From positions 183,337 to 247,336 of the forward strand of contig JBQVOK010000004.1 of assembly GCA_052437175.1 (NCBI GenBank): a stretch of 64,000 nt of DNA, read 5' to 3'. The notes below the pieces were generated by a model. The model saw only the letters and a program-made list of their open reading frames with translations, ran no database searches and was not told where the DNA came from. Of this stretch, positions 49,086 through 64,000 are shown piece by piece (within the stretch, counting starts at the first letter, position 1; the number at the start of each line of letters is the position of its first letter). Source of the DNA: Flavobacteriales bacterium. GTDB taxonomy: Bacteria > Bacteroidota > Bacteroidia > CAIKAF01. The position numbers were made by a program, and so were the translations under genes.

Positions 49086-49647
49086 TTAAAGAAAAAGTAT
49101 TATAAGCCGTGCTTCGTATATATGTGCATTCGCCAACATTTCATATTGTTGTCGTTTGCCCGCAGGTTCGGTCGGATCGTGTTGCCGTGGATCATCGCTT
49201 TCATGTCTGTTACTTTCTGTTTATGTCAAAAAAAAAAACGCCCCGGAATTACCCGGAGCGTTTCTATATAAAGTACGTATCTGACGAATTTATACAGGTT
49301 TTATCCGGTAACGTGCACACATACACATACGTGACCACATCTTCGGGGAAGCAGGCATGCACGGAGCGTTATGTGTTAATGTTGTTTTCACCGGGAACGG
49401 TTGTTTTTCTGTTTCGGGGGCAAAAGTATATTAAATTATTTATCCTACCAAACAAGTAGGATAAGTAAAATGCATATTTTACATAAAATTTACCGAAGAG
49501 GCCCCTGAAAACTTTCCGGGTGAAATTACCTGTATTTGGGGTATACAATGGCAGGGTTTTAAGTTTACAATTGTGTTTAACTATTTGTTTATCAATAAAT
49601 TGATATTGTATTTTTTTTCGTATATAAAAGAAGGCCATCTAAACTTA

Positions 49648-49684
49648 ATTTGCAGGAGTCCTTTTTAGTCGCTTATATTTGTTC
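49648..49684 (+). promoter_or_regulatory. Candidate Bacteroidetes sigma-A promoter for the tail-collar gene array
   Basis: -33 TTG at 49650-49652 and -7 TATATTTG at 49674-49681 with a 21-nt spacer, about 45 nt upstream of the ATG at 49728. Confidence 0.5.
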
Positions 49685-49727
49685 ACCATTAAAGAATCTA
49701 AATCGTTTAACCATTTAACCTGAGCCT

Positions 49728-50267
49728 ATGGAAGGTACAATCGGAGAAATCCGCCTTTTTGCCGCTACATTCGCACCAAAAAACTGGTGGTATTGTGACG
49801 GCTCGATTATCGCAATCAGATCCAATACGGCACTGTATTCCATTCTGGGTACCACTTATGGTGGCGACGGAGTGCAGACATTTGCCTTACCCGATCTGAA
49901 AGGACGTTCAGCTCTGGGAGCAGGGCAGGGTAACGGCCTCAGCTACTATCCCCTGGGAGCCATGACGGGAGTGAACAATGTAACGCTGCTGTCATCGAAC
50001 CTGCCGCCGCACACGCACACGGCAACCAACAACATTGTTATTCCGGCTTATTCGGATGAAGGCACGGCCAGCACGCCGGCCAACAATGTACTGGCCGCAA
50101 AAGGTCAGATGTATACGAACCTGGCGGGTGATACGAACCTGCATCCGATTCCGTATAACGTAACCGTTGGAATCGCCGGTGCCAGTCAGCCGCTTACGAT
50201 CACACAGCCGGCACTGGGTATGAACTACGTTATCTGTATGTACGGTGTTTTCCCGGCCAGACAGTAA
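49728..50267 (+). CDS. Phage-tail-collar domain (MdpB-like) protein, paralog 1
   Basis: 179 aa with a collar-domain N-terminus (IGEIRLFAATFAPKNWWYCDGS…YSILGTTYGGDGVQTFALPDLKGR) and an HxH motif (LPPHTHTA). Confidence 0.85.
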   Translation: MEGTIGEIRLFAATFAPKNWWYCDGSIIAIRSNTALYSILGTTYGGDGVQTFALPDLKGRSALGAGQGNGLSYYPLGAMTGVNNVTLLSSNLPPHTHTATNNIVIPAYSDEGTASTPANNVLAAKGQMYTNLAGDTNLHPIPYNVTVGIAGASQPLTITQPALGMNYVICMYGVFPARQ

Positions 50268-50326
50268 TTGTGTCCACAGATCTTATTCAGCAAGTTACAC
50301 CTTAACTTATTAAACATTAAAATTTT

Positions 50327-50869
50327 ATGGAAGGTTATATAGGAGAAGTACGCCTGTTTGCAGGTAATTTTGCCCCGCGCAGCTGGGCGTTCTGCGACGG
50401 CAGCTCCATGAGCATATCAGAATATTCTGCCCTGTACGCTATTATCGGCGATACATTCGGCGGCAACGGTGTTACCAGTTTTGACCTGCCCGACCTGCGC
50501 AGCCGCGTGGCCGTAGGTGCAGGAACAGGTCCCGGCCTTACGCCCATTGCACTGGGTCAGGCTGCCGGAACAGAAACGGCAAGTATGTCGGTATCCCAGA
50601 TGCCCGCACACAATCACTTTGCTTCGGCCGTAGTTTCGATGCCGGCATACAGCGGTACCGATACACAGGGAACGCCCACCAATAACTACCTGGCCGGACT
50701 GGCCGGCGCTTATTCGGCAGAAGTGCCCGATTCGCACCTGGCTCCCATTGCGGCCCCGGTAGCACTGAGCACGGCGGGCGCGGGTATCCCGTTCCCGATC
50801 ATACAGCCGATCACGGCTCTTAATTACATTATTTGCGTGGAAGGTATTTTCCCCAGCAGAAACAATTAA
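50327..50869 (+). CDS. Phage-tail-collar domain (MdpB-like) protein, paralog 2
   Basis: 180 aa with the same architecture and an HxH motif (MPAHNHFA). Confidence 0.85.
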   Translation: MEGYIGEVRLFAGNFAPRSWAFCDGSSMSISEYSALYAIIGDTFGGNGVTSFDLPDLRSRVAVGAGTGPGLTPIALGQAAGTETASMSVSQMPAHNHFASAVVSMPAYSGTDTQGTPTNNYLAGLAGAYSAEVPDSHLAPIAAPVALSTAGAGIPFPIIQPITALNYIICVEGIFPSRNN

Positions 50870-50906
50870 TCCTTAACACAACAATTCTCAAAACCTTTTT
50901 GAAATT

Positions 50907-51452
50907 ATGGAAGGAACAATGTCAGAAATCCGCCTTTTTGCCGGGAATTTCGAACCGAAATCCTGGGCATACTGTGCCGGACAACTTTTACCGATAAATA
51001 CCAACCAGGCCCTGTTCAGCCTGCTGGGAACCACATACGGAGGTAACGGGATCCAGACCTTTGCGCTGCCCGACATGCGTGGCCGCATACCTATGGGAAC
51101 CGGCAATGCAGCCGGAATAAACACATACCAGCTGGGCGAAGTGAACGGTGTGAACAACGTAACGGCCACCATGGCCAATCTGCCCGCTCATACCCATAGT
51201 CCGGCTCCCGGCCTGGCACTGAGTATCCCGGCCTATTCAGATTCCGGGGATGTGGGAACACCTACCGGCAATCACCTGGCGGCTCTCGGCGGACTGTATT
51301 CCAACAAAACGCCGGACACCACCATGAAGCCGATCAGCACCAGTGTAACCGTAAGTGTTACCGGGTCTAACCAGCCGATGAGCCTGATGCAGCCTTATCT
51401 CGGAATGAATTATATAATCTGCCTGTATGGAATTTTTCCTTCCAGAGGATAA
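50907..51452 (+). CDS. Phage-tail-collar domain (MdpB-like) protein, paralog 3
   Basis: 181 aa with the same architecture and an HxH motif (LPAHTHSP). It is about 55% identical to paralog 1 by eye. Confidence 0.85.
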   Translation: MEGTMSEIRLFAGNFEPKSWAYCAGQLLPINTNQALFSLLGTTYGGNGIQTFALPDMRGRIPMGTGNAAGINTYQLGEVNGVNNVTATMANLPAHTHSPAPGLALSIPAYSDSGDVGTPTGNHLAALGGLYSNKTPDTTMKPISTSVTVSVTGSNQPMSLMQPYLGMNYIICLYGIFPSRG

Positions 51453-51528
51453 ACATCCGAAATTACATTAATCCGGGTTCCCCTGGCGGTGCAAAAACCG
51501 TCGGGGGATTCCCTGTTATAACTGATAC

Positions 51529-52659
51529 ATGAGAATAGCTTTACTTTTACCCCGCTCCATGCTGTACCCGTCCCTGTCTTTTGACATGATGGACGGACTT
51601 AAGTCGGGCCTGAAAAGAACAGGTCTGGATGCCCGGTATGAGGTAGTTTCGGCCAGTATAGGCCTGGCTGCCAAAAACGAGGAGATCTATGCCCGTTGCG
51701 AGCAGGTACTGCTCGACGGTGCCGATGTGGTAGTGGCGTATATGAACCCGCTTTCGGCCGAGTATGTGCATGCTCTCTTCCAGAGCTCAGGCAAACGCCT
51801 GGTGGTGCTCGACAGCGGGTATCATTTCCCGGCATTCCAGGGAAAACTTTCCCATGCCTGGTTCCTTTCTTTACAAGGTAATCTTTGCTGCCGCACCATT
51901 ATGCAGAAGGCTGCTGCGGATGGTTACCGCAATTTTGCACTCAGCTGTTCCTTCTACGATGCGGGTTACCGTCCTTCGTACAGCTACACCACGGCGGCCG
52001 AAGATAAAGGCGGTACCGTGGGCCTGAGCCATATCACACCGCTGCGCCGGGCCGAGTTTAGCCTGGAACGCCTGGCCGAATACCTGGGAGAAAATAAAGA
52101 TGCCGCAATGCTGGCTTCTTTCTGCGGCGATATGGCCGAAGATTTTTTCCGGGAAAGCAGCCGCCTGGAGCTGAGTACCACTTACGATACCTACGGCGCC
52201 GCATTTACGGCTGAGGAAGAATGGCTGGCCAAAATACCCTATCCGGGTAAGGACTGGGATGCGGCCGTTCCGTGGGCCAAAAGCATTGCCACGCCGGCAA
52301 ACGAAGCGTTTGTAAGTACCCTGGAAAGCATCCGCGAAAATAAAGCCAACCTGTTTTCACTGCTGGGCTGGGAAGCCGCCCTTTTTATAGCCGCCACGGA
52401 AACCGGCAGCCCGGAAGGGATCGTTCTGGATTCGCCCCGCGGCCGCGTGCAGATAAATCCCGACACCCAGTTCTCGGAAGCACCGGTATATTTTGCACGG
52501 GTAACGAAGAACGAAGAAACGGGTAACTGCCGCCTTAGCGATGTACGCGATGCCGGAGACCTGCAGGAAGAACGCAGACTGCTGCAGCGCGATATCGATT
52601 ATATACAGACCACAACGGCCAATTCATGGCTGAACGCATACGCCTGCCTGGACTCATGA
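51529..52659 (+). CDS. Signal-less PBP1-fold ligand-binding protein (LivK/AmiC-like), function unknown
   Basis: 376 aa. The N-terminal pattern RIALLLPRS…GLKSGLKRTG…YEVVSAS…ADVVVAYMNPLSAEYVHALFQSSGKRLVVLDSG resembles type-1 periplasmic-binding-protein cores, but there is no signal peptide. Confidence 0.5.
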   Translation: MRIALLLPRSMLYPSLSFDMMDGLKSGLKRTGLDARYEVVSASIGLAAKNEEIYARCEQVLLDGADVVVAYMNPLSAEYVHALFQSSGKRLVVLDSGYHFPAFQGKLSHAWFLSLQGNLCCRTIMQKAAADGYRNFALSCSFYDAGYRPSYSYTTAAEDKGGTVGLSHITPLRRAEFSLERLAEYLGENKDAAMLASFCGDMAEDFFRESSRLELSTTYDTYGAAFTAEEEWLAKIPYPGKDWDAAVPWAKSIATPANEAFVSTLESIRENKANLFSLLGWEAALFIAATETGSPEGIVLDSPRGRVQINPDTQFSEAPVYFARVTKNEETGNCRLSDVRDAGDLQEERRLLQRDIDYIQTTTANSWLNAYACLDS

Positions 52660-53588
52660 GTAACACCCGCCCGCATATAGCTCTTCTCTGTAACAACCGT
52701 ATGGCTGTTCCCGCCCTGCAGACCCTGCATGGTATGGGATTGCTCTGTGCAATAGGCGTGCCGGAGAACAATGCGGATATTATGGATTTCTGTTCTGTTT
52801 TTGCTGCACAGACGGGTATTCCCCTGCAACTTTTCCGTAAAGAGGATTTAGCTGCGCAGCTGAACAACTGGCTGGAGACCAGCCGGGCTGAGACCGTGTT
52901 TATGATGACCTTCCCCTGGAAAATACCGGCTGAGGTACTTTCAGGACAGGCAAAATTCTACAATTTTCATTACGGATTATTACCGGAGATGCGTGGTGCA
53001 GACCCGGTTTTTGAGTCCCTGCGCCAGCAGAAAAAAGAAACGGGCATTACGGTGCATGCGGTTGAAAAAGGTATCGACCGCGGACCGGTGCTTTTTCGTC
53101 AGCCTTTGCCGCTGAGTGCAGATATGACACATGGATTGCTGTGTACCCAGCTGGCTTACCTGGGTGCACGCATCATTCCCGAAGTGCTGAATTCGCTTCA
53201 GCATACAGGGCAGGCACAGGATGAAAGCGGGGCCCGTTATTTCAAAAGGCCGGGTCTGGCCGAAGTATGTGTACGCTGGGAAAGCCAGGATGCCGCTGCG
53301 GCCGCCGCACTGGCCCGGGCCTGTAACCCCTGGAACAAAGGGGCCTATACACAATGGAACGGCTGGAACGTACGCATTGTGGAAGCTACGCCGGTACAGG
53401 CAGACGCAAACGGAGCCCTGCCCGGTACGGTACTTTCCATCGACCGCGAGGGCGGACTTTGCGTGCAATGCAAAGACAATACGCAACTTAAAATCGATAT
53501 TATTTATACCGACGAAGGATTTATGTCCGGACACCGGCTCCTGAGCTTCGGAATGAAGAAAGGCGATCGTTTTACCACTATTCAATAA
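52656..53588 (+). CDS. Fmt-like N10-formyl-tetrahydrofolate-dependent formyltransferase (N- and C-terminal domains), not the canonical Met-tRNA formyltransferase
   Basis: Start taken at MSNTRPHIALL… (52656), which overlaps the upstream stop by 4 nt. The catalytic Asn and His sit in FYNFHYGLLPEMRGADP and the Asp in HAVEKGIDRGPVL. A C-terminal Fmt-like domain is present (…CNPWNKGAYTQWNGWNVRI…). It lacks the Fmt N-terminal GTPxFA / PDRPxGRG signatures. Confidence 0.75.
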   Translation: MSNTRPHIALLCNNRMAVPALQTLHGMGLLCAIGVPENNADIMDFCSVFAAQTGIPLQLFRKEDLAAQLNNWLETSRAETVFMMTFPWKIPAEVLSGQAKFYNFHYGLLPEMRGADPVFESLRQQKKETGITVHAVEKGIDRGPVLFRQPLPLSADMTHGLLCTQLAYLGARIIPEVLNSLQHTGQAQDESGARYFKRPGLAEVCVRWESQDAAAAAALARACNPWNKGAYTQWNGWNVRIVEATPVQADANGALPGTVLSIDREGGLCVQCKDNTQLKIDIIYTDEGFMSGHRLLSFGMKKGDRFTTIQ

Positions 53589-53611
53589 ATCACTTATCCA
53601 AAATCTCAAAC

Positions 53612-56600
53612 ATGAAACATTACGTACATTCTGCATCCAAGGCGTTTCTGCTTTTCTGCCTGCTTGCAGCAGCGATTTTGCAGGGCCGCGATCTTAAGGC
53701 CCAGACGAGCCTTGCTGCGGGCGATATCGCCTTCACGGGGTACAACTCCAACGCATCGCCTGCGGCAGGTGATACCATCGCTTTTGTGCTGCTTACCAAT
53801 ATTTCGGCCAGTACGCAGATCAGCATTACCGACCGCGGTTATAACGGCAGCGGCTGGGTGGGCGCGGGTTCCACAGAAGGGACCATTACCTGGACCACCG
53901 GTTCGGCCTTACCCTGGGGCACAGAGATCTATATCTGCGGCCTTTCGGCGCGGGTATACAACCCGGTATCAGGTACCTTTACCTCCAACGGTAGTGTAAC
54001 GCTTACAGAAGGAACCTCTCCGAACGGACTGTCCATCTCGAACGTGGGCGACCAGTTCATTGCCTTCCAGGGTGGTGGCGGATCTATTACGGGCGGCGGC
54101 GTTACGATCATTGCCGGTCTGCACTTTCTTACCTGTAATGCCAATACCAGCACGGCAACCTGGGACGGAGCGGGTTGTACCATCGGTCCCAATTCATCCG
54201 TTATGCCTCCCGGTCTTACCGGAGGTACCAATGCTTTTTATACAGGCACCATGCCCGGCGGCATACTGCCGACCATCGCCCGTTTTAACTGTACGGGAAC
54301 CCCGGCGACCACGCCTGCACAGATCCGCACGGCCGTTATGAACCAGGCCAACTGGACCCTTGCCAATTCTGCACTTTCCATGCCTTCCAAATGTGTATTT
54401 GTAAGTTCTACCCCGGTGATCAATGCACACCCGCAGAACCGCACCATTTGTAACAACGGCAATACCACCATGTCTATTTCGGCCATAGGGGCCACATCTT
54501 ATCAATGGTATGTGAATACCGGTGCCGGTTTCAATATGGTTCCGGCCGGAGCACCCTACAGCGGTATAAATACCAACACACTTACCATAACAGGGGGTAC
54601 CACGTCTATGAACGGCTACCAGTACCGTTGTGTAGCTACCAACGGCTCAGGCTCAGCCACCAGTAACCCGTCTACACTCACCGTAATTACAGTAACCACA
54701 ACGGGTAGCAGCACGAACGTAAGCTGTATCGGCGGCAATAACGGCAGCGCCACGGTGGTTGCTTCCGGCGGAATTTTGCCCTATACGTACAGCTGGAGCC
54801 CGAGCGGCGGCACAGCAGCCACGGCCAGCGGACTTGCTGCAGATAACTATTCCGTGCTGGTAACCGACAATATAGGATGCCAGGCCACACGGGCCTTTAA
54901 TATTACGGAACCGGCTTCCGGTATGAGCGCTACGATCTCTAAAACCGATGTAAGCTGCAACGGCGGCGGTAACGGAACGGCAACCGTGGTAGTATCGGGC
55001 GGTACTACACCGTATACCTACAGCTGGTCGCCGAGCGGCGGCACCAATGCTACAGCTACCGGTCTCAGCCAGGGAACCTACACGGTAACCGTAACCGATA
55101 ACGGTGGTTGCCAGATCACCCGTAGTATTACCGTAAACCAGCCGGCTACGGCCCTGGGCGGAACTACTTCTAAAACGGACGTAAGCTGCAACGGCGGTGG
55201 CAACGGAACGGCTACGGTAGTAGCTTCCGGCGGTACCACACCGTATACCTACAGCTGGTCACCAAGCGGTGGCACCAATGCTACGGCTACGGGTCTCAGC
55301 CAGGGAACCTACACGGTAACGGTAACCGATTTTAACGGTTGCCAGATCACGCGCAGCGCTACGGTAAACCAGCCTGCTACGGCCCTGGGTGGAACTACTT
55401 CTAAAACAGATGTAAGTTGTAATATGGGTAGCAACGGAACAGCTACGGTAGTAGCTTCCGGCGGTACTACACCGTATACCTACAGCTGGTCGCCAAGCGG
55501 CGGCACCAATGCTACGGCTACGGGTCTTGCTGCGGGTACCTACACGGTAACGGTAACCGATTTTAACGGTTGCCAGATCACGCGCAGCGCTACGGTAACC
55601 CAACCGGCAACGGCCCTGGGCGGAAGCATTTCTAAAACGGATGTAAGCTGCAACGGTGGTAGCAACGGAACAGCCACAGTAGTAGCTTCCGGTGGTACTA
55701 CACCCTATACCTACAGCTGGAGCCCGAGCGGCGGCACCAATGCCACGGCTACAGGTCTTGCGCAGGGTTCCTACACAGTAACGGTAACCGATTTTAACGG
55801 TTGCCAGATCACGCGCAGCGCTACGGTAACCCAACCGGCAACGGCCCTGGATGGTACCATTTCTCAAACCGACGTAAGCTGTACCGGTGGATCTAACGGA
55901 ACGGCTACGGTAGTAGCATCCGGCGGAACTACACCGTATACCTACAGCTGGAGCCCGAGCGGTGGCACCAATGCCACGGCAACGGGTCTTGCGCAGGGCA
56001 CTTATACGGTAACAGTAACCGATTTTAACGGTTGCCAGATCACGCGCAGCACTACGGTAAATCAACCGGCTACCGCCCTGGACGGTACCACTTCTAAAAC
56101 GGATGTAAGCTGTAATGGAGGTAGCAACGGAACGGCCACAGTAGTAGCCTCCGGTGGTACAGGAACCTATACCTACAGCTGGGCACCGAGCGGTGGCACC
56201 AATGCCACGGCAACGGGTCTTGCCGCCGGTACCTACACGGTAACGGTAACCGATAACAATAGCTGCCAGATCACCCGTACCGTAACGGTAAATCAGCCTG
56301 CGGCCCTTGACGGTACTACCTCTAAAACGGATGTAAGCTGCAACGGCGGAGCCAACGGCACGGCCACGGTGGTTGCTTCCGGTGGTACTACGCCCTATAC
56401 CTACAGCTGGTCACCGAGCGGTGGTACCAATGCTACGGCAACGGGTCTTTCACAGGGTACATATACCGTAACGGTAACCGATAACAATACCTGTCAGATC
56501 ACCCGCACGGTAACGGTAAATCAGCCTGCGGCCCTCGATGGCACTATTTCCAAAACGGATGTAAGCTGCAACGGCGGAAGCAACGGAACGGCCACAGTAG

Positions 56601-59600
56601 CAGTGTCCGGCGGTACTACACCCTATACCTACAGCTGGGCTCCTTCGGGCGGAACGGCTGCTACGGCTACGGGTCTTGCCCAGGGCACTTACACGGTAAC
56701 CGTAACCGATAACAATACCTGCCAGATCACCCGTACGGTAACGGTAAATGAACCTGCTGCCATGGTGCTTACCCCGTCTCACACCGATGTAAGCTGTAAC
56801 GGCGGCGGTAACGGAACAGCTACCGTAACGGTAAGCGGCGGCGCTACTCCATACAGCTACAGCTGGTCGCCATCGGGCGGAACGGCTGCTACAGCTACCG
56901 GTCTTGCCGCAGGCACGTACACGGTAACTGTGACCGACAACAATACCTGCCAGGCTACGCAAAGCATTACGGTAAATCAGCCTTCTGCCATCAGCCTTAC
57001 GCCTTCACATACGGATGTAAGCTGCAATGGCGGTTCTAACGGTACGGCCACGGTAACAGCCAGTGGTGGTGTGGGGCCTTACAGCTACAGCTGGAGCCCG
57101 AGCGGCGGCACAGCAGCTACGGCCACGGGTTTGGCTGCGGGTACGTACACCGTAACCGTAACCGATAACAATACCTGCCAGGCTACGCAAAGCATTACGG
57201 TAAATCAGCCTTCTGCCATCAGTCTTACGCCTTCACATACGGATGTAAGTTGTAACGGAGGTTCTAATGGTACGGCCACAGTAACAGCCAGCGGTGGTGT
57301 GGGTCCTTACAGCTACAGCTGGAGCCCGAGCGGTGGTACCAATGCCACGGCCACGGGTTTGGCAGCGGGTACGTACACGGTAACGGTAACCGATAACAAT
57401 ACCTGCCAGGCTACGCAAAGCATTGCGGTAAGTCAGCCTGCTGCCCTTAGTATAACACCTTCGCATACGGATGTAAGCTGTAATGGCGGTTCTAACGGTA
57501 CGGCCACGGCTACGGTAAGCGGTGGTGTAGGTCCCTACAGCTACAGCTGGTCGCCATCAGGCGGCACCAATGCCACAGCTACAGGTCTTGCGGCAGGCAC
57601 GTATACGGTAACGGTAACGGATAACAATACCTGCCAGGCTACGCAAAGCATTACGGTAAATCAGCCTGCTGCGATCAGCCTTACTCCCTCACATACGGAT
57701 GTAAGCTGCAATGGCGGTTCTAACGGTACGGCCACGGTAACAGCCAGTGGTGGTGTGGGTCCTTACAGCTACAGCTGGAGCCCGAGCGGCGGAACGGCTG
57801 CTACAGCTACAGGTCTTGCTGCAGGTACGTATACGGTAACTGTGACCGATAACAATACCTGCCAGGCTACACAGAGCGTTACCATTACAGAGCCCTCGGC
57901 TTTCAGTGTAACGCCTTCGCACACGAATGTAAGCTGTAACGGCGGCAGCAACGGTACAGCCACGGTAACGGTAAGCGGCGCCACGGCACCGTACAGCTAC
58001 AGCTGGTCGCCATCAGGCGGCACCAATGCCACGGCTACGGGTCTTGCCGCAGGCACCTACACGGTAACCATCACCGATAATAATACCTGCCAGACCACAC
58101 AGAGCATTACCATCACGCAGCCTTCGGCTTTCAGCGTAACACCTTCGCATACCAATGTAAGCTGTAACGGCGGCGGCAACGGCACGGCCACGGTAACGGT
58201 AAGCGGTGCTACAGCGCCATACAGCTACAGTTGGTCGCCATCGGGCGGCACCAATGCCACAGCTACAGGTCTTGCCGCAGGCACGTATACGGTAACCATC
58301 ACGGATGACAATACCTGCCAGACGACACAGAGCATTACCATCACGCAGCCTTCGGCCTTCAGCATCACGGCTTCACAGACAGATATACTCTGCAATGGAG
58401 CCTCTACCGGTACGGCCACGGTAACGGTGAGCGGCGCTACGGCTCCCTATACCTACAGCTGGAGTCCTTCAGGCGGTACAGCGGCTACGGCCAGCGGTCT
58501 TTCTGCAGGTACGTATACGGTGACCATCACCGACAGCAATATGTGCCAGGCCACACAAAGCTTCAGCCTGCTGCAGCCCCTGGCCTTCAGTATTACGGGC
58601 AGTCAGACCAATATCAGCTGTAACGGCGATTCTACAGGTACGGCCACCGTAACGGTAAGCGGCGCCACAGCCCCGTATACCTACAGCTGGAGTCCTTACG
58701 GCGGTACAGCGGCCACGGCTGCGGGTCTTGTAGCGGGTACCTACACGGTAACGGTTACCGACAGCAACCTGTGCCAGACCACACAAAACTTTACCCTGAC
58801 CGAGAGCCCGGCCCTGGCCGTTCAGGTTTCATCGGCAGACCTAAGCTGCTTCGGTGCTAACAACGGTTATGCAGCCGTAACGGTAAGCGGCGGCGTAGGT
58901 CCGTATACTTACAGCTGGACCGGTGGCGGAGCAACGGATTCTATCGGCGGACTTACCGCAGGTGTGTATACCGTAACCATTACCGATTCCCTGTTCTGTA
59001 CCACACAAGCAAATGTTACGATAAACGAACCTGCCGAACTGACCCTGCAGATGTGGCAGCAGAATATTTCCTGCACAGGTAACGGCGCCGACGGTATGGC
59101 TGCCGTAACCGTAAGCGGCGGAACTACCCCGTACAACTACAGCTGGACGCCGGGTGCCCAGACAAACGACAGCCTCAGTAACCTGGCCGCCGGTACCTAC
59201 ACGGTACTGGTTACCGATGACAATGGCTGCAGTGCTACAGACAGCGTTGTGATAGACGGCCCCGAGCAGTTCCAGGCAACGCAGAATGTAAGTATCTGCC
59301 AGGGCCAGAGTTACAGCATCGGAAACAGTACCTACACAGCGGGTGGTACGTATACCGATACACTGCTTACAGCCGCCGGCTGCGACAGCGTGGTAACAAC
59401 CATACTGACCGTAAATACCGTAAATGCGACCATTACCAATAACGATCCCACACTGCTGGCTTCTGCAGGTGGCACAGACTACAAATGGATGAACTGCGAA
59501 ACCGGTCAGCTCATCGGTGGCGCCACATCGCAGAGTTACACAGCCACAGCCAACGGCAGCTATGCGGTGATCATAACACAGAACGGATGTACCGATACTT

Positions 59601-59872
59601 CGGCATGCGCGGACATTGTACGCGTATCGCTGAACGAAATACCGGACGGTTCTGTAAACTTCTTCCCGAACCCGACCCGTGGTTCCATCACGGTAAAAAC
59701 GGACGGTATCATCGTGAAGAAGACTGAACTGATGGACATCACCGGTAAACAACACCCGGTGATCCAGAACGGAAACAGCCTGGACCTTTCGGCACTGCAA
59801 AACGGGGTATACCTCGTGCGCATCACCGATGTAAATGGCAGGCAGTACACTTCACGTATCGTGAAGATCTAA
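53612..59872 (+). CDS. Giant cell-surface adhesin with about 20 tandem SprB-type repeats and a T9SS C-terminal sorting domain
   Basis: 2086 aa with a signal peptide. About 20 repeats of 75-78 aa follow the pattern TDVSCNGG(S/G)NGTATV..SGG..PYTYSWSPSGGT(N/A)ATATGL..GTYTVTVTDNN.CQ. The C-terminal CTD is FFPNPTRGSITVKTDG…NGVYLVRITDVNGRQYTSRIVKI. Confidence 0.9.
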   Translation: MKHYVHSASKAFLLFCLLAAAILQGRDLKAQTSLAAGDIAFTGYNSNASPAAGDTIAFVLLTNISASTQISITDRGYNGSGWVGAGSTEGTITWTTGSALPWGTEIYICGLSARVYNPVSGTFTSNGSVTLTEGTSPNGLSISNVGDQFIAFQGGGGSITGGGVTIIAGLHFLTCNANTSTATWDGAGCTIGPNSSVMPPGLTGGTNAFYTGTMPGGILPTIARFNCTGTPATTPAQIRTAVMNQANWTLANSALSMPSKCVFVSSTPVINAHPQNRTICNNGNTTMSISAIGATSYQWYVNTGAGFNMVPAGAPYSGINTNTLTITGGTTSMNGYQYRCVATNGSGSATSNPSTLTVITVTTTGSSTNVSCIGGNNGSATVVASGGILPYTYSWSPSGGTAATASGLAADNYSVLVTDNIGCQATRAFNITEPASGMSATISKTDVSCNGGGNGTATVVVSGGTTPYTYSWSPSGGTNATATGLSQGTYTVTVTDNGGCQITRSITVNQPATALGGTTSKTDVSCNGGGNGTATVVASGGTTPYTYSWSPSGGTNATATGLSQGTYTVTVTDFNGCQITRSATVNQPATALGGTTSKTDVSCNMGSNGTATVVASGGTTPYTYSWSPSGGTNATATGLAAGTYTVTVTDFNGCQITRSATVTQPATALGGSISKTDVSCNGGSNGTATVVASGGTTPYTYSWSPSGGTNATATGLAQGSYTVTVTDFNGCQITRSATVTQPATALDGTISQTDVSCTGGSNGTATVVASGGTTPYTYSWSPSGGTNATATGLAQGTYTVTVTDFNGCQITRSTTVNQPATALDGTTSKTDVSCNGGSNGTATVVASGGTGTYTYSWAPSGGTNATATGLAAGTYTVTVTDNNSCQITRTVTVNQPAALDGTTSKTDVSCNGGANGTATVVASGGTTPYTYSWSPSGGTNATATGLSQGTYTVTVTDNNTCQITRTVTVNQPAALDGTISKTDVSCNGGSNGTATVAVSGGTTPYTYSWAPSGGTAATATGLAQGTYTVTVTDNNTCQITRTVTVNEPAAMVLTPSHTDVSCNGGGNGTATVTVSGGATPYSYSWSPSGGTAATATGLAAGTYTVTVTDNNTCQATQSITVNQPSAISLTPSHTDVSCNGGSNGTATVTASGGVGPYSYSWSPSGGTAATATGLAAGTYTVTVTDNNTCQATQSITVNQPSAISLTPSHTDVSCNGGSNGTATVTASGGVGPYSYSWSPSGGTNATATGLAAGTYTVTVTDNNTCQATQSIAVSQPAALSITPSHTDVSCNGGSNGTATATVSGGVGPYSYSWSPSGGTNATATGLAAGTYTVTVTDNNTCQATQSITVNQPAAISLTPSHTDVSCNGGSNGTATVTASGGVGPYSYSWSPSGGTAATATGLAAGTYTVTVTDNNTCQATQSVTITEPSAFSVTPSHTNVSCNGGSNGTATVTVSGATAPYSYSWSPSGGTNATATGLAAGTYTVTITDNNTCQTTQSITITQPSAFSVTPSHTNVSCNGGGNGTATVTVSGATAPYSYSWSPSGGTNATATGLAAGTYTVTITDDNTCQTTQSITITQPSAFSITASQTDILCNGASTGTATVTVSGATAPYTYSWSPSGGTAATASGLSAGTYTVTITDSNMCQATQSFSLLQPLAFSITGSQTNISCNGDSTGTATVTVSGATAPYTYSWSPYGGTAATAAGLVAGTYTVTVTDSNLCQTTQNFTLTESPALAVQVSSADLSCFGANNGYAAVTVSGGVGPYTYSWTGGGATDSIGGLTAGVYTVTITDSLFCTTQANVTINEPAELTLQMWQQNISCTGNGADGMAAVTVSGGTTPYNYSWTPGAQTNDSLSNLAAGTYTVLVTDDNGCSATDSVVIDGPEQFQATQNVSICQGQSYSIGNSTYTAGGTYTDTLLTAAGCDSVVTTILTVNTVNATITNNDPTLLASAGGTDYKWMNCETGQLIGGATSQSYTATANGSYAVIITQNGCTDTSACADIVRVSLNEIPDGSVNFFPNPTRGSITVKTDGIIVKKTELMDITGKQHPVIQNGNSLDLSALQNGVYLVRITDVNGRQYTSRIVKI

Positions 59873-60053: not shown

Positions 60054-60752
60054 TCAGTGGGGTTCCGGCCGGTCTTTGCCACCCCGCAGACGGGGTTCAT
60101 AGTACAGGATATTACTCCAGTCGCCGATGCCCAGTATAAACCATTTTTCCTGTTCGATCTTGGCTATTTCCTGTTCCAGGGCAGTGGTATCGGCAAGCTC
60201 TTTAGGACCGAATAATTTCTGCAGCAAACCGGCAGGCCTGCGCTGCTCTTCCAGTTGTTTCTGTAAAGCCTGAAGGCGCAGGTTAAAGATATCCACTTCG
60301 GTATAAAAATCGGCGATGAGGTCGTCGATATTCTGTATTTCTTCGTGCAGTTCGGCGTTCTGTTTTTCCGGTCCGTTGTCACCCATCTCAAACAGCTCGG
60401 CACATTCCAGGATCATATAATCCAGGTGGTTTTCTTCGTTGTTCAGAAAGGCCCGGGTACGGCTGATGTGGAGGCGGAGTTCCGTTTCGGGATAGATGTT
60501 GCGGGCGCTGAGCTCTTCCAGGAAGCGGAAAAGACGGTCGCGTCCCTCTTTGTAACGGCCGCGTATGGCAATGGCATCATCATAATCCCATATCACGGAA
60601 CGGCATATCTTCGGGTCGGCGCTTACAAGGATCTGGAAGGGAAGGGGTAAATAGTAATTGTATTCAGCAATACCACGCGAACGACCGCCTGCTTTATGAG
60701 GATTTTCCGCCGGATCGAAATCCAGGGCATATAAATAACTTCGGTTTGCCAT
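60054..60752 (-). CDS. Hypothetical cytoplasmic protein
   Basis: 232 aa with no signal peptide and an acidic, coiled-coil-prone C-terminal half. No recognisable family. It is followed upstream by a 344-bp AT-rich non-coding region. Confidence 0.55.
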   Translation of the reverse strand: MANRSYLYALDFDPAENPHKAGGRSRGIAEYNYYLPLPFQILVSADPKICRSVIWDYDDAIAIRGRYKEGRDRLFRFLEELSARNIYPETELRLHISRTRAFLNNEENHLDYMILECAELFEMGDNGPEKQNAELHEEIQNIDDLIADFYTEVDIFNLRLQALQKQLEEQRRPAGLLQKLFGPKELADTTALEQEIAKIEQEKWFILGIGDWSNILYYEPRLRGGKDRPEPH

Positions 60753-61096: not shown

Positions 61097-61534
61097 ATGA
61101 GAACTATGCAGATTTTATTGGCGGGAGTCCTGTCAGTGGCATTTTTAACCGCTTGTAACGGACAGCAGGACAAAAAAGTGGAACAGGCCAAACAGGATGT
61201 GAAAGAGGCGGAAGAAAAGCTGGATGAAGCCCGTGCCAAAGCTAACGCTGAGTACGAAGCTTATAAAGCCGACGTAAACGAACGTATCGCGGAAAACGAG
61301 CGTAAGATCGCCAACCTCCGCGAAGACATGAAAAACAGTAAAAAAGAGGTGAAAAAAGAGTACCGTGACCAGGTAGACAAACTCGAAGTAAAAAACAACG
61401 AACTCAAAAAAGAGATCGGTGAATTTCAGAATACTTCGGACGAAAAATGGCAGGCCTTCAAGCGTGAGTTCAATCACGATATGGATGAACTGGGCAAGGC
61501 TTTCAACGACCTGGGTAAGGATAATGCAAAATAG
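61097..61534 (+). CDS. Coiled-coil lipoprotein of unknown function
   Basis: 145 aa with the lipobox LTAC and a highly charged K/E-rich helical sequence. Confidence 0.7.
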   Translation: MRTMQILLAGVLSVAFLTACNGQQDKKVEQAKQDVKEAEEKLDEARAKANAEYEAYKADVNERIAENERKIANLREDMKNSKKEVKKEYRDQVDKLEVKNNELKKEIGEFQNTSDEKWQAFKREFNHDMDELGKAFNDLGKDNAK

Positions 61535-62011: not shown

Positions 62012-64000
62012 TTAATGGTTTTTGATCACTTTTTTCACCAGTACCTTGTCGCCCGAATAGATACGTACAAAGTAGATACCGTCGCTCAGGTGCTGTATCG
62101 GGAAATAGATGTTCCCGTTCTGCTGGCTGCTTTGGATGCCGATCTGTGCACCCAGGTCGTTGTACAGCTCTACACGGTCGATCTGTATTCCCTCGGCTTG
62201 GATGTACACATCGCCATGGGTCGGGTTCGGGAAGAGTGTTACGGAAGCGGCTGTTTCCTCGTCTACACCCAGGCAGCCGTATACTTCTACGTGTTGTTCG
62301 GTGGAAGCGGTACAACCATTTGCATCCGTATAGGTGTAGGTAAGCACGTAGTTGCCGTTACCGGTTCCCGGATCGAATGCGCCGCCGCTTACCCCGGTAC
62401 CGCTGTAGATACCGCCTGCCGGTGCACCCTGGGTCAGGGCAAAGGCCGGGTTCAGGTTACACTGGTCGGCGATCGGTCCGAAGGAAACCACCGGAAGGGC
62501 ATTCACCGTTATGGTCTGGCTGGCGCTGGCATTACAGTTTCCGGCTGCGTTGTCGCTTACGGTATAACTGGTCGTTGCCGAAGGGCTCACCGTGATGCTG
62601 TTACCGCTGATATTACCCGGCTGCCAGGTGTAGCTGCCGTTGCCGTTCACCGAAAGGGTCACATCTTCACCGGCACATACTGCATTGCTGCTGGTATGTA
62701 TGGTGAGTGAAGGCGAGGCAAGCACCGAAACGGTAAGAGAGGCCGTATTTGTACAGTTGTTATTGTCGGTACCGGTTACCGTGTAGGAGGTCGTTGCCGA
62801 CGGACTTACGGTAATGCTGCTGCCGCCCAGGTTGCCCGGTGTCCATACGTAAGAAACGGCTCCGCTGGCATTCAGCGTGGTGCTGCTTCCGGCGCATATC
62901 GACGGGTTTACAGCCGATGCCTGTACGTTGGGCAGGCTGTTCACGGTAATAGTAATCGTAGTGGTATCGCTGCAGTTCCCGTTTAAGCCGATCAGCTGGT
63001 AGGTAGTGCTGGTAGCCGGACTCACCGAAATGCTGGCGCCGGTCATATTACCCGGCGTCCAAAGGTACGAAGTGGCTCCGCTTGCCGTAAGCGTGGTGTT
63101 TTCACCTGCGCACAGTATGGCATCCGCAGTAGCGGCGCTTACGGAAGGTGTATTCTGTACGTTCACGGTTACAGCGGCCGTACTCTGACATCCGTTTGCA
63201 TCGGTGCCCGTAACGGTATAGGTAGTGGTAGCTGTCGGATATACGGTAACATTGCTGCCGCTTATAGCGCCCGGGTTCCAGTTGTATGAAACGGCTCCGC
63301 CGGCCGTGAGCACTGTAGCCGCACCGGCACAAACCGAGCTCTGTGATGCGCTGGCATTTACCTGGGCCGGAGTGTTTACCTGGATCAGGATGGAAGCAGA
63401 TGCAGAACAGCCATTCGCCGTGGTGCCCGTAACGGTGTACGAAGTAGTGGTTGCCGGAGAAACCGTGCTGATGGTACCTGTAGCGTTGTTGTGTTGCCAC
63501 AGGTATGAATTGGCTCCGCTTACGTTCAGTACCACCGTTTCGCCGGCGCAGATGCTGTTGTCGCTGGCGGTAAGGGTTAATGCAGAGGCGTTATTTACAA
63601 CCTGTACCGTAACCGTGGCGGTAGTGCTGCAGCCGTTGTCGGTTCCCGTTACCACGTAGGTGGTGGTCGAGGACGGCGTTACGCTGATGCTGCTGCCGGT
63701 AAGGTTGCCCGGCTGCCAGCTGTAGGAGGATGCTCCTGTGGCCGTAAGTGTGGCCGATGCGCCCTGGCAGATACTCGTATTGGACGTGTAGGCCTGTACA
63801 TTGGGTGCGGTCTGTACCTGCACGGTAAAGCTGGCCTGGGATGAACAACCGCTGCTGTTGCTGTGACCACTTACCGTGTATACGGTGGTAGAACCCGGTG
63901 CTACACTGATGCTGCTGCCGGTAAGATTGCCCGGCATCCAGGTATAGGTATCGGCGCCGCTGGCCGTAAGGGTAGTGGTAGTACCGGCACAGATGCTGGC
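62012..64000 (-). CDS. Large Ig-like-repeat cell-surface protein with a T9SS C-terminal sorting domain; the N-terminal part extends beyond the window
   Basis: At least 641 aa. It has about eight repeats of ~75 aa of the form …Q.GNL(T/S)GSSI(S/T)V.P..TT.Y.VTGTD.NGC… and a C-terminal CTD (VTLFPNPTHGDVYIQAEG…DGIYFVRIYSGDKVLVKKVIKNH). Confidence 0.85.
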   Translation of the reverse strand, partial: ASICAGTTTTLTASGADTYTWMPGNLTGSSISVAPGSTTVYTVSGHSNSSGCSSQASFTVQVQTAPNVQAYTSNTSICQGASATLTATGASSYSWQPGNLTGSSISVTPSSTTTYVVTGTDNGCSTTATVTVQVVNNASALTLTASDNSICAGETVVLNVSGANSYLWQHNNATGTISTVSPATTTSYTVTGTTANGCSASASILIQVNTPAQVNASASQSSVCAGAATVLTAGGAVSYNWNPGAISGSNVTVYPTATTTYTVTGTDANGCQSTAAVTVNVQNTPSVSAATADAILCAGENTTLTASGATSYLWTPGNMTGASISVSPATSTTYQLIGLNGNCSDTTTITITVNSLPNVQASAVNPSICAGSSTTLNASGAVSYVWTPGNLGGSSITVSPSATTSYTVTGTDNNNCTNTASLTVSVLASPSLTIHTSSNAVCAGEDVTLSVNGNGSYTWQPGNISGNSITVSPSATTSYTVSDNAAGNCNASASQTITVNALPVVSFGPIADQCNLNPAFALTQGAPAGGIYSGTGVSGGAFDPGTGNGNYVLTYTYTDANGCTASTEQHVEVYGCLGVDEETAASVTLFPNPTHGDVYIQAEGIQIDRVELYNDLGAQIGIQSSQQNGNIYFPIQHLSDGIYFVRIYSGDKVLVKKVIKNH

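Follow-up and report, generated by a model that had tools for sequence, protein, structure and literature searches.

A conserved Bacteroidota cassette in which phage-type collar proteins, a periplasmic-binding-protein fold and a formyltransferase precede a giant protein of the type IX secretion system

Introduction

The closest experimental parallel to the gene cassette described here comes from the virophage DSLV2, in which three consecutive, co-oriented PF07484 (Collar) proteins of ~19 kDa each have been purified together as a 1:1:1 heterotrimer and shown to bind cells of Synechococcus (PMC12724248). Our cassette occupies positions 49728-59872 on the plus strand of a 64,000-nt stretch of Flavobacteriales bacterium DNA (assembly GCA_052437175.1, contig JBQVOK010000004.1, positions 183,337 to 247,336; hereafter the window, in whose positions its features are given), and encodes three Collar proteins, a protein with the type-I periplasmic-binding-protein (PBP) fold, an N-formyltransferase of the Fmt/ArnA class and a giant SprB-repeat protein of the type IX secretion system (T9SS). 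It shares with DSLV2 the run of three consecutive, co-oriented PF07484 genes, whereas here the run stands in a cellular context, where its neighbours encode a T9SS protein, a formyltransferase and a protein with the PBP fold.

Other parts of the cassette have described counterparts in phages and in bacterial cells. With the tip of the T4 gp12 short tail fibre and the phage ‘minor tail proteins’ the collars share homology over ~180 aa, an HxH motif and the Cys of a WxFCxG motif, but here they are free-standing, with no fibre shaft, virion or other phage genes, and occur as one to three tandem cellular genes. Free-standing cellular collars without a signal peptide, whose function is not known, are represented by RhiB of the Rhizobium rhiABC genes, MrpB of Microcystis mrpAB and the COG4675 proteins, and the IMG label for the collar ortholog of Flavobacterium johnsoniae, ‘microcystin-dependent protein’, is the name of COG4675. 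MrpC of Microcystis is a secreted, O-glycosylated pilin with a cytoplasmic O-GlcNAc transferase in its gene cluster, and mrpAB may adjoin mrpC. The cassette differs from these systems in its partner genes and has no homolog of RhiA/MrpA or RhiC/MrpC. Among T9SS adhesins, the F. johnsoniae operons sprCDBF and remA offer the nearest comparison, in that a giant SprB-repeat T9SS surface protein is encoded with dedicated accessory genes; in contrast to them, the window copy carries a type A C-terminal domain (CTD) and has no PorP/SprF, and its accessory genes encode cytoplasmic proteins unrelated to SprC, SprD or SprF.

A preliminary description of the window, made from its sequence, knew of no characterised system that combines these parts, and neither the literature nor PADLOC gave us one; no published description, PADLOC model or NCBIfam model of the whole cassette was found in our searches. 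The parts belong to known families, and their assembly is new.

Results

Gene order is conserved across Bacteroidota

All six open reading frames (ORFs) reported in the preliminary description were confirmed on the plus strand between 49728 and 59872, in the order three collars, type-I PBP-fold protein, Fmt/ArnA-class formyltransferase and SprB-repeat T9SS giant protein, and its domain assignments were all upheld by Pfam and NCBIfam. The intergenic spacings measured 59, 37, 76, -4 and 23 nt, so that three of the values given earlier hold and the other two (77 and 24) are each corrected by one. A scan of 185,579 species genomes returned 141 relatives of the PBP-like protein, of which the best 80 loci were kept and their neighbours scored by searching six-frame translations with the window proteins. 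Three collars stood directly upstream of the PBP-like gene in 78 of 79 species loci, and an Fmt-like gene directly downstream of it in 75 of 76. The preliminary description had stated beforehand that a lack of synteny with an SprB-repeat adhesin in related genomes would speak against it; we found a giant SprB-repeat protein on the same strand, next after the Fmt-like gene, in 71 of 75 species loci, and a downstream gene with the same N-terminal tip domain in 68 of 75. The exceptions comprised an AraC-type gene, an unannotated gene and convergent giant fibre-like genes. At one locus of this last kind (L080, 12250-14400, minus strand; a Flavipsychrobacter metagenome-assembled genome, MAG), a convergent repetitive fibre-like gene takes the place of the same-strand SprB-repeat gene, and its product, longer than 716 aa and cut by the contig end, contains repeats such as GQVLGYNGTSVAWTTPSSG.

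The best 80 loci belong to Flavobacterium, Chryseobacterium and other Weeksellaceae, Fluviicola, Taibaiella, Flavipsychrobacter and Chitinophagaceae MAGs. Nearest of all is a ‘Bacteroidia bacterium’ MAG, with 96% identity. Flavobacterium, Chryseobacterium and Taibaiella contain many homologs of the PBP-like and Fmt-like proteins, often on shared contigs. Gene calling at five loci (F. johnsoniae, Taibaiella lutea, two Fluviicola-type contigs and a JGI metagenome contig) gave the identical order of three collars, PBP-like protein, Fmt-like protein and SprB-repeat T9SS protein; the 4-nt overlap of the PBP-like and Fmt-like genes recurred among these loci, and the flanking genes differed between F. 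johnsoniae, Taibaiella, Fluviicola and the window. Exact look-up identified ABQ07054, ABQ07057, ABQ07058 and ABQ07059 as orthologs in F. johnsoniae UW101, where gene order suggests that ABQ07055 and ABQ07056 are the remaining members of the cassette. A Logan contig resembling F. johnsoniae (L002, 9355-9932) has its third collar gene in two frames, by frameshift or assembly error, within an otherwise intact cassette.

Order and strand are thus kept across Flavobacteriia, Chitinophagia and many metagenome lineages, and by these comparisons well over a hundred species of Bacteroidota, F. johnsoniae included, share the cassette with its genes in this order. The arrangement, found again in 80 species genomes and in the 80 metagenome loci described below, is far beyond chance. 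As it is conservation of order, and not spacing alone, that supports this view, we consider it very probable that the six genes form one conserved, operon-like functional module of Bacteroidota.

Distant variants reveal a constant core and an exchangeable enzyme

An exhaustive profile search with the PBP-like family yielded 146 clusters (50% identity) at E <= 1e-30 and two groups within the superfamily, one of ~380 aa without signal peptides and one of ~430 aa with twin-arginine signals, whose members resemble ordinary binding proteins of ATP-binding cassette (ABC) transporters. A metagenome scan seeded with a distant subfamily of the signal-less group (a 10-sequence alignment, its seed sharing 23-36% identity with the other signal-less members in the same alignment) returned 80 loci. 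In this distant set at least one collar lay upstream of the PBP-like gene in 64 of 65 loci, an Fmt-like gene came next in 53 of 55, and a large same-strand ORF followed the Fmt-like gene in 34 of 36. Collar genes numbered one in 7 loci, two in 22 and three in 15. At one metagenome locus (L120, 6269-7255), an IS1595-family transposase gene lies in a 4.6-kb stretch that parts the collars from the PBP-like gene.

Two variants depart further from the window. Plasmid pFA3 of Fulvitalea axinellae (325 kb; L088, NZ_AP025317.1, 200654-219778), whose PBP-like member is 25% identical to the window protein, encodes a sulfotransferase, two collars, the PBP-like protein, a 2844-aa giant protein with a type B CTD and PorP/SprF; it is without a formyltransferase, and the sulfotransferase gene stops 3 nt before the first collar gene. 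The L104 variant consists of three collars, a PBP-like protein and a 669-aa protein with a type A CTD, with no enzyme at all. Since the formyltransferase is absent in L104 and replaced by a sulfotransferase in Fulvitalea, the constant core of the cassette is the collars, the PBP-like protein and a T9SS-exported protein, and the group-transfer enzyme, usually a formyltransferase, is exchangeable or lost.

The collars are ancient paralogs with a variable tip

Testing for a collar triplet, we found three consecutive, co-oriented PF07484 genes: paralog A (49728..50267, plus strand, 179 aa), paralog B (50327..50869, plus strand, 180 aa) and paralog C (50907..51452, plus strand, 181 aa), with Pfam Collar matches at E 7e-24, 5e-26 and 4e-26, respectively (84-91 bits against a gathering cutoff of 24). 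Every collar starts with the domain itself and has GIFPSRN as its last residues. T4 gp12 is a sequence match for all three paralogs, and they match phage tail proteins over their full length with 33-39% identity. Each paralog carries the HxH motif (residues 95/97 of A, encoded at 50010-50018), which every one of the 133 long collars in the distant set retains, as do at least 95% of those in the genome set. No signal peptide, lipobox or CTD was found on the collars, the PBP-like protein or the formyltransferase in any variant examined.

For 236 of the 237 collars in 80 genomes, the nearest relative in another genome occupied the same position of the triplet, and identity was 0.58-0.60 within a position against 0.46-0.48 between positions; the triplication is therefore ancient, with each copy retained. 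Within the collar, residues ~100-150 are the most variable, with an identity of 0.44 compared with 0.61-0.69 elsewhere, and this variable tip may bind a glycan or another surface ligand. By analogy, we lean towards a structure in which three collars form a trimer around a metal ion held by the HxH motif, as an A:B:C heterotrimer in the window. Since variants with one or two collar genes exist, collar stoichiometry must, on the evidence of gene content, be flexible. Formylation of the collar N-terminus was also considered, since MEG is invariant in 12 aligned collars, and was dropped on finding that other subfamilies start MSTEPF... and MPYIGE....

A PBP-fold protein without an export signal accompanies the collars

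The fourth gene (51529..52659, plus strand) encodes a 376-aa protein with weak Pfam matches to Peripla_BP_6 (34.6 bits) and Peripla_BP_5 (28.5 bits). Its AlphaFold2 model has a predicted local distance difference test (pLDDT) score of 89.4 and a predicted template modelling (TM) score of 0.90, and a Foldseek search of the PDB returned 4zpj (E 3e-18, TM 0.79), 4eyg, UrtA and AmiC. At TM 0.65-0.80 and ~15% identity, the fold resembles that of proteins binding aromatic acids, urea, amides (AmiC) or branched-chain amino acids, and no export signal is present, as beta-strand 1 of the model begins at residue 2; the earlier view of an AmiC-like, PBP-fold protein without a signal peptide is thus supported by its structure model. 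The alignment and the model together place invariant residues just after strands 1, 3, 4, 5, 7 and 8, at S10/Y13/P14, Y71/N73/P74, D95/G97, S141/D144/R148, G200/D201 and E230/W232. In the type-I PBP fold, the loops after those strands line the ligand cleft between the lobes, and we suggest that the protein binds a conserved small polar ligand there. A further invariant motif, NSWLNAYACLDS, lies at the C-terminus, and the C-terminal tail with its GWxNxYLC motif is of low confidence in the model. Both groups of the superfamily (P0312-P0460), with and without twin-arginine signals, share a GWxNxYLC-type motif at the very C-terminus.

The protein has its fold in common with AmiC, UrtA and LivJ, and its cytoplasmic location with AmiC, but it differs from them in having neither an AmiR/ANTAR partner nor ABC genes and in forming its own subfamily, marked by GWxNxYLC. 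Examined as a candidate AmiC-type sensor, it had collars and the formyltransferase as its constant neighbours and no regulator. No permease or ATPase gene of a transporter lay near the PBP-like gene at the gene-called loci. We rejected an ABC-transporter binding protein on the grounds that there is no signal peptide and no permease or ATPase gene nearby. None of the viral contigs searched encodes the PBP-like protein. The recurrent 4-nt overlap of its gene with the Fmt-like gene suggests translational coupling of the two.

The formyltransferase is distinct from housekeeping Fmt

The fifth gene (52656..53588, plus strand) encodes an N-formyltransferase of 310 aa with Formyl_trans_N and Formyl_trans_C domains. 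The longest ORF starts at 52626 and would give 320 aa; we place the start at the ATG at 52656, which the -4 overlap needs, because ortholog lengths of 309-312 aa fit it. With Fmt and the N-terminal domain of ArnA it shares a two-domain architecture, an HxxLLPxxRG-type motif and an Asn/His/Asp triad, and its best sequence matches in the PDB are 1fmt (E 6e-21) and ArnA (E 2e-12). The triad, previously noted in the window copy as Asn-His-Asp (Asn103 at 52962-52964, His105 at 52968-52970 and Asp141 at 53076-53078), proved invariant together with the LLPxxRG motif in 78 of 78 members of the genome set and 51 of 51 of the distant set, the window copy being counted in each, and because of this invariance the protein is likely an active enzyme.

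That the protein is not housekeeping Fmt, as had been proposed, is now supported from several sides. It scores 103.3 bits against the Fmt equivalog model TIGR00460, whose cutoff is 201.5. The basic loop-1 insertion and basic C-terminal domain of E. coli Fmt bind the tRNA acceptor arm; the phmmer alignment to that enzyme (1fmt) begins at query residue 47 and Fmt residue 52, past loop 1, and the C-domain of the cassette enzymes is acidic (median pI 5.65, net charge -2). Fmt is near-universal in bacteria as a single housekeeping copy, whereas the cassette enzyme is rare: its PBP-like partner, which an Fmt-like gene adjoins in 75 of 76 loci, was found in only 141 of 185,579 species genomes. We therefore rejected a housekeeping Fmt on the combination of the missed equivalog cutoff, the unaligned loop 1, the acidic C-domain and the rarity of the cassette.

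Models of sugar-modifying relatives fit no better, the ArnA model scoring 69 bits against a cutoff of 777 and the dTDP-sugar formyltransferase model 18.7 against 238, and no sugar-pathway genes were found in or beside the cassette at the window and the gene-called loci. The enzyme thus stands apart from both Fmt and ArnA in falling below the two equivalog cutoffs, in its unaligned loop 1 and acidic C-domain, in its rarity and in its PBP-fold partner. It probably acts on an amine other than that of a charged tRNA, and the acceptor amine may belong to a sugar precursor or to a small molecule.

The giant protein is a type A T9SS cargo

The last gene (53612..59872, plus strand) encodes a giant surface protein of 2086 aa that comprises a Sec signal peptide, a tip domain, an immunoglobulin-like (Ig) domain, ~20 SprB repeats and a type A CTD. 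Its N-terminus, MKHYVHSASKAFLLFCLLAAAILQGRDLKAQ, reads by eye as a Sec signal peptide. PF13573 SprB repeats match in 20 stretches (E 3e-207), alongside Ig-like domains, and the C-terminal sorting domain (aa 2018-2086, 59663..59869, plus strand) matches Por_Secre_tail (E 4.6e-21) and TIGR04183, the latter with 81.3 bits against a cutoff of 23, which identifies the CTD as type A. Both marks of a type A T9SS cargo, a Sec signal peptide (by eye) and a C-terminal TIGR04183 match, were therefore found, in agreement with the earlier claim that the protein is exported by the T9SS; a type A CTD leads to T9SS export and usually to covalent anchoring at the cell surface. The N-terminal tip domain (aa 32-266, 53705..54409, plus strand) had no match in sequence searches of Pfam and the PDB and is predicted to be a lamin-tail or DUF4876-like beta-sandwich. 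Gliding adhesins of the SprB type have a type B CTD and an adjacent PorP/SprF gene. We rejected this identity for the window protein, whose CTD is of type A and not type B and which has no PorP/SprF gene next to it.

Two Fluviicola-type loci (L005, 12093-13412; L072, 12048-13409) encode an extra protein of ~440 aa between the Fmt-like and giant genes, consisting of the same N-terminal tip domain and a CTD, like a giant protein without its stalk. The window itself holds a second protein with a T9SS type A CTD (62012-63937, minus strand, 641 aa), which has Ig_7 (CHU_C-associated) domains and resembles the SprB-repeat region of the giant protein.

Leader, transcription signals and flanks

The cassette is preceded by an AT-rich leader of 642 bp (49086..49727, plus strand) with a GC content of 0.37 against 0.52 for the window, and a Bacteroidota-type promoter-like motif lies within it, made up of TTTG, 21 nt and TATATTTG on the plus strand, with TATATTTG at 49674-49681, starting 54 nt and ending 46 nt upstream of the first ATG (49728). 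The leader and motif of the preliminary description are thus present, but the motif is not conserved across other genera, occurring anywhere within 300 nt in only 22 of 78 upstream regions. It is identical in the closest relative, L008, a comparison that is uninformative on motif conservation because the two leaders are 94% identical. An Rfam search of the window, leader included, gave no known RNA element. The terminator scan predicted no intrinsic terminators between the six genes, and on the plus strand it gave a single weak terminator-like site in the block (54882-54896), within the giant gene. EamA and Na+/H+ antiporter genes upstream and a DUF7822 gene downstream all lie on the opposite strand, so that the six genes stand as an isolated, co-directional block. 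The GC content of cassette windows is 0.51-0.59, compared with 0.52 for the whole window.

On the minus strand of the leader, a strong terminator-like hairpin (49234-49265), with 14 pairs of which 7 are G-C and a T-run after it, sits upstream of the point at which the minus-strand EamA gene starts (49085). Because of this hairpin, a small minus-strand transcript or ORF (49369-49638, 89 aa) may exist in the leader, antisense to the promoter region of the cassette. Beyond the block, the DUF7822 gene (60054-60752, minus strand) is convergent with the giant gene, and an ORF of 145 aa (61097-61534, plus strand) with weak, coiled-coil-type Pfam matches only lies in an AT-rich stretch of GC ~0.40.

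Discussion

We rate the cassette as a T9SS surface-protein operon with dedicated accessory genes. In the explanation that we propose, the collars would assemble as a metal-centred trimer, A:B:C in the window, that acts in a lectin-like manner, with its variable tip binding a glycan or surface ligand. The PBP-like protein would bind a small polar ligand and work in complex with the translationally coupled formyltransferase, which would take N10-formyl-tetrahydrofolate as formyl donor and N-formylate an amine carried by a sugar precursor or small molecule, and not by tRNA; the group-transfer enzyme would represent an exchangeable tailoring step. The giant protein would be anchored at the surface through its type A CTD and present the lamin-tail-like domain at its far end, and the five signal-less proteins would serve as accessory factors for this surface fibre in adhesion or in recognition between cells or between cell and substrate. 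We judge this explanation, taken as a whole, to be evenly poised between holding and failing, and the accessory role in a surface fibre or adhesin that it assigns to the five signal-less proteins is a tentative proposal that we would sooner expect to be revised than to stand.

Several observations weigh against this explanation. The five upstream proteins carry no export signal in any variant, and the giant protein is exported; a link to the fibre therefore needs either an unknown export route or an indirect connection, such as a modified glycan or small molecule. Glycosyltransferase, flippase and aminotransferase genes are absent from the cassette. The core can do without the formyltransferase, which L104 lacks and for which Fulvitalea has a sulfotransferase instead. 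Nor is the giant protein of the SprB type, given its type A CTD and the lack of an adjacent PorP/SprF gene, and a search of the literature gave no expression, localisation or mutant data on the cassette. A bolder reading holds that the cassette is an undescribed surface apparatus, in which a trimer resembling a receptor-binding protein (RBP) and lacking export signals is functionally coupled to the T9SS fibre through the PBP-fold partner and the exchangeable enzyme; we regard this as doubtful, if conceivable. Coupling of this kind could come about by non-classical export, with the trimer docking on the lamin-tail-like tip of the fibre. Another route would be a new modification, formyl or sulfo, that creates or caps the ligand of the trimer, or that controls the anchoring of T9SS cargo.

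The same lack of export signals on all five upstream proteins would be expected if two units merely travelled together, namely a cytoplasmic module of collars, PBP-like protein and formyltransferase, for example one making or sensing an N-formylated metabolite, and a giant protein that is only co-regulated or adjacent. The nearest ordinary relatives of the PBP-like protein are substrate-binding proteins for aromatic acids, urea and amides, which would suit such a module, and 4 of 75 species loci are without a same-strand giant protein. We nevertheless find this arrangement rather unlikely: a neighbour with a T9SS CTD recurs in 71 of 75 and 34 of 36 loci despite changes in tip domain, repeat type and CTD type, and because such persistent adjacency is hard to explain otherwise, we favour a functional link. 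The PBP-like protein always accompanies the collars, even where the enzyme is missing or swapped, and the sulfotransferase gene of Fulvitalea ends 3 nt ahead of the first collar gene, both of which would accord with an enzyme that modifies the collars or the giant protein before export and a PBP-like protein that acts as assembly factor or chaperone for the collar trimer. This too we hold to be distinctly unlikely, as the collars contain no invariant Lys and their N-termini vary (MEGTI..., MSTEPF..., MPYIGE...), so that no conserved amine acceptor is evident, and no Fmt-class enzyme is known to us to N-formylate proteins.

The homology of the collars to phage tail-tip proteins, full-length and at 33-39% identity, and the concentration of their variability in the tip region might instead point to phages, whether the cassette were the remnant of a prophage or tailocin tail fibre or an anti-phage device that masks or senses the cell's own receptors by means of RBP mimics. 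Yet no other phage gene lies near the window cassette or the gene-called loci, the PBP-like protein is on no viral contig, the GC content of the cassette (0.51-0.59) is close to that of the window (0.52), and the ancient positional orthology of the collars argues for a long-resident cellular module. A prophage or tailocin remnant was rejected on the first two of these grounds. As for known anti-phage defence, the five upstream proteins match no PADLOC model, and we consider a phage-related explanation in either form improbable. Annotation pipelines, finally, would make this an ordinary locus of housekeeping Fmt, ABC-transporter binding protein and unrelated neighbours, labelling the orthologs ‘methionyl-tRNA formyltransferase’ and ‘branched-chain amino acid transport system substrate-binding protein’. 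This is hardly credible in view of the missed Fmt equivalog cutoff (PGAP itself assigns only ‘formyltransferase family protein’), the rarity of the cassette beside a near-universal Fmt, the lack of a signal peptide on the PBP-like protein and of permease or ATPase genes near it, and the strict synteny.

With an arrangement that extends over two Bacteroidota classes and a divergent metagenome subfamily, the cassette is among the most strictly syntenic accessory cassettes that one could expect. It bears on the role of free-standing cellular tail collars such as RhiB, MrpB and the COG4675 proteins, on the substrates of Fmt paralogs that do not act on tRNA, and on how giant T9SS repeat proteins gain specific functions. 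As F. johnsoniae UW101 (ABQ07054-ABQ07059) is a genetically tractable T9SS model, the hypotheses set out here are directly testable in that organism. If the cassette were indeed a new surface apparatus, it would open the first way into the function of the RhiB/MrpB (COG4675) proteins, which has been elusive since their description in 1992.

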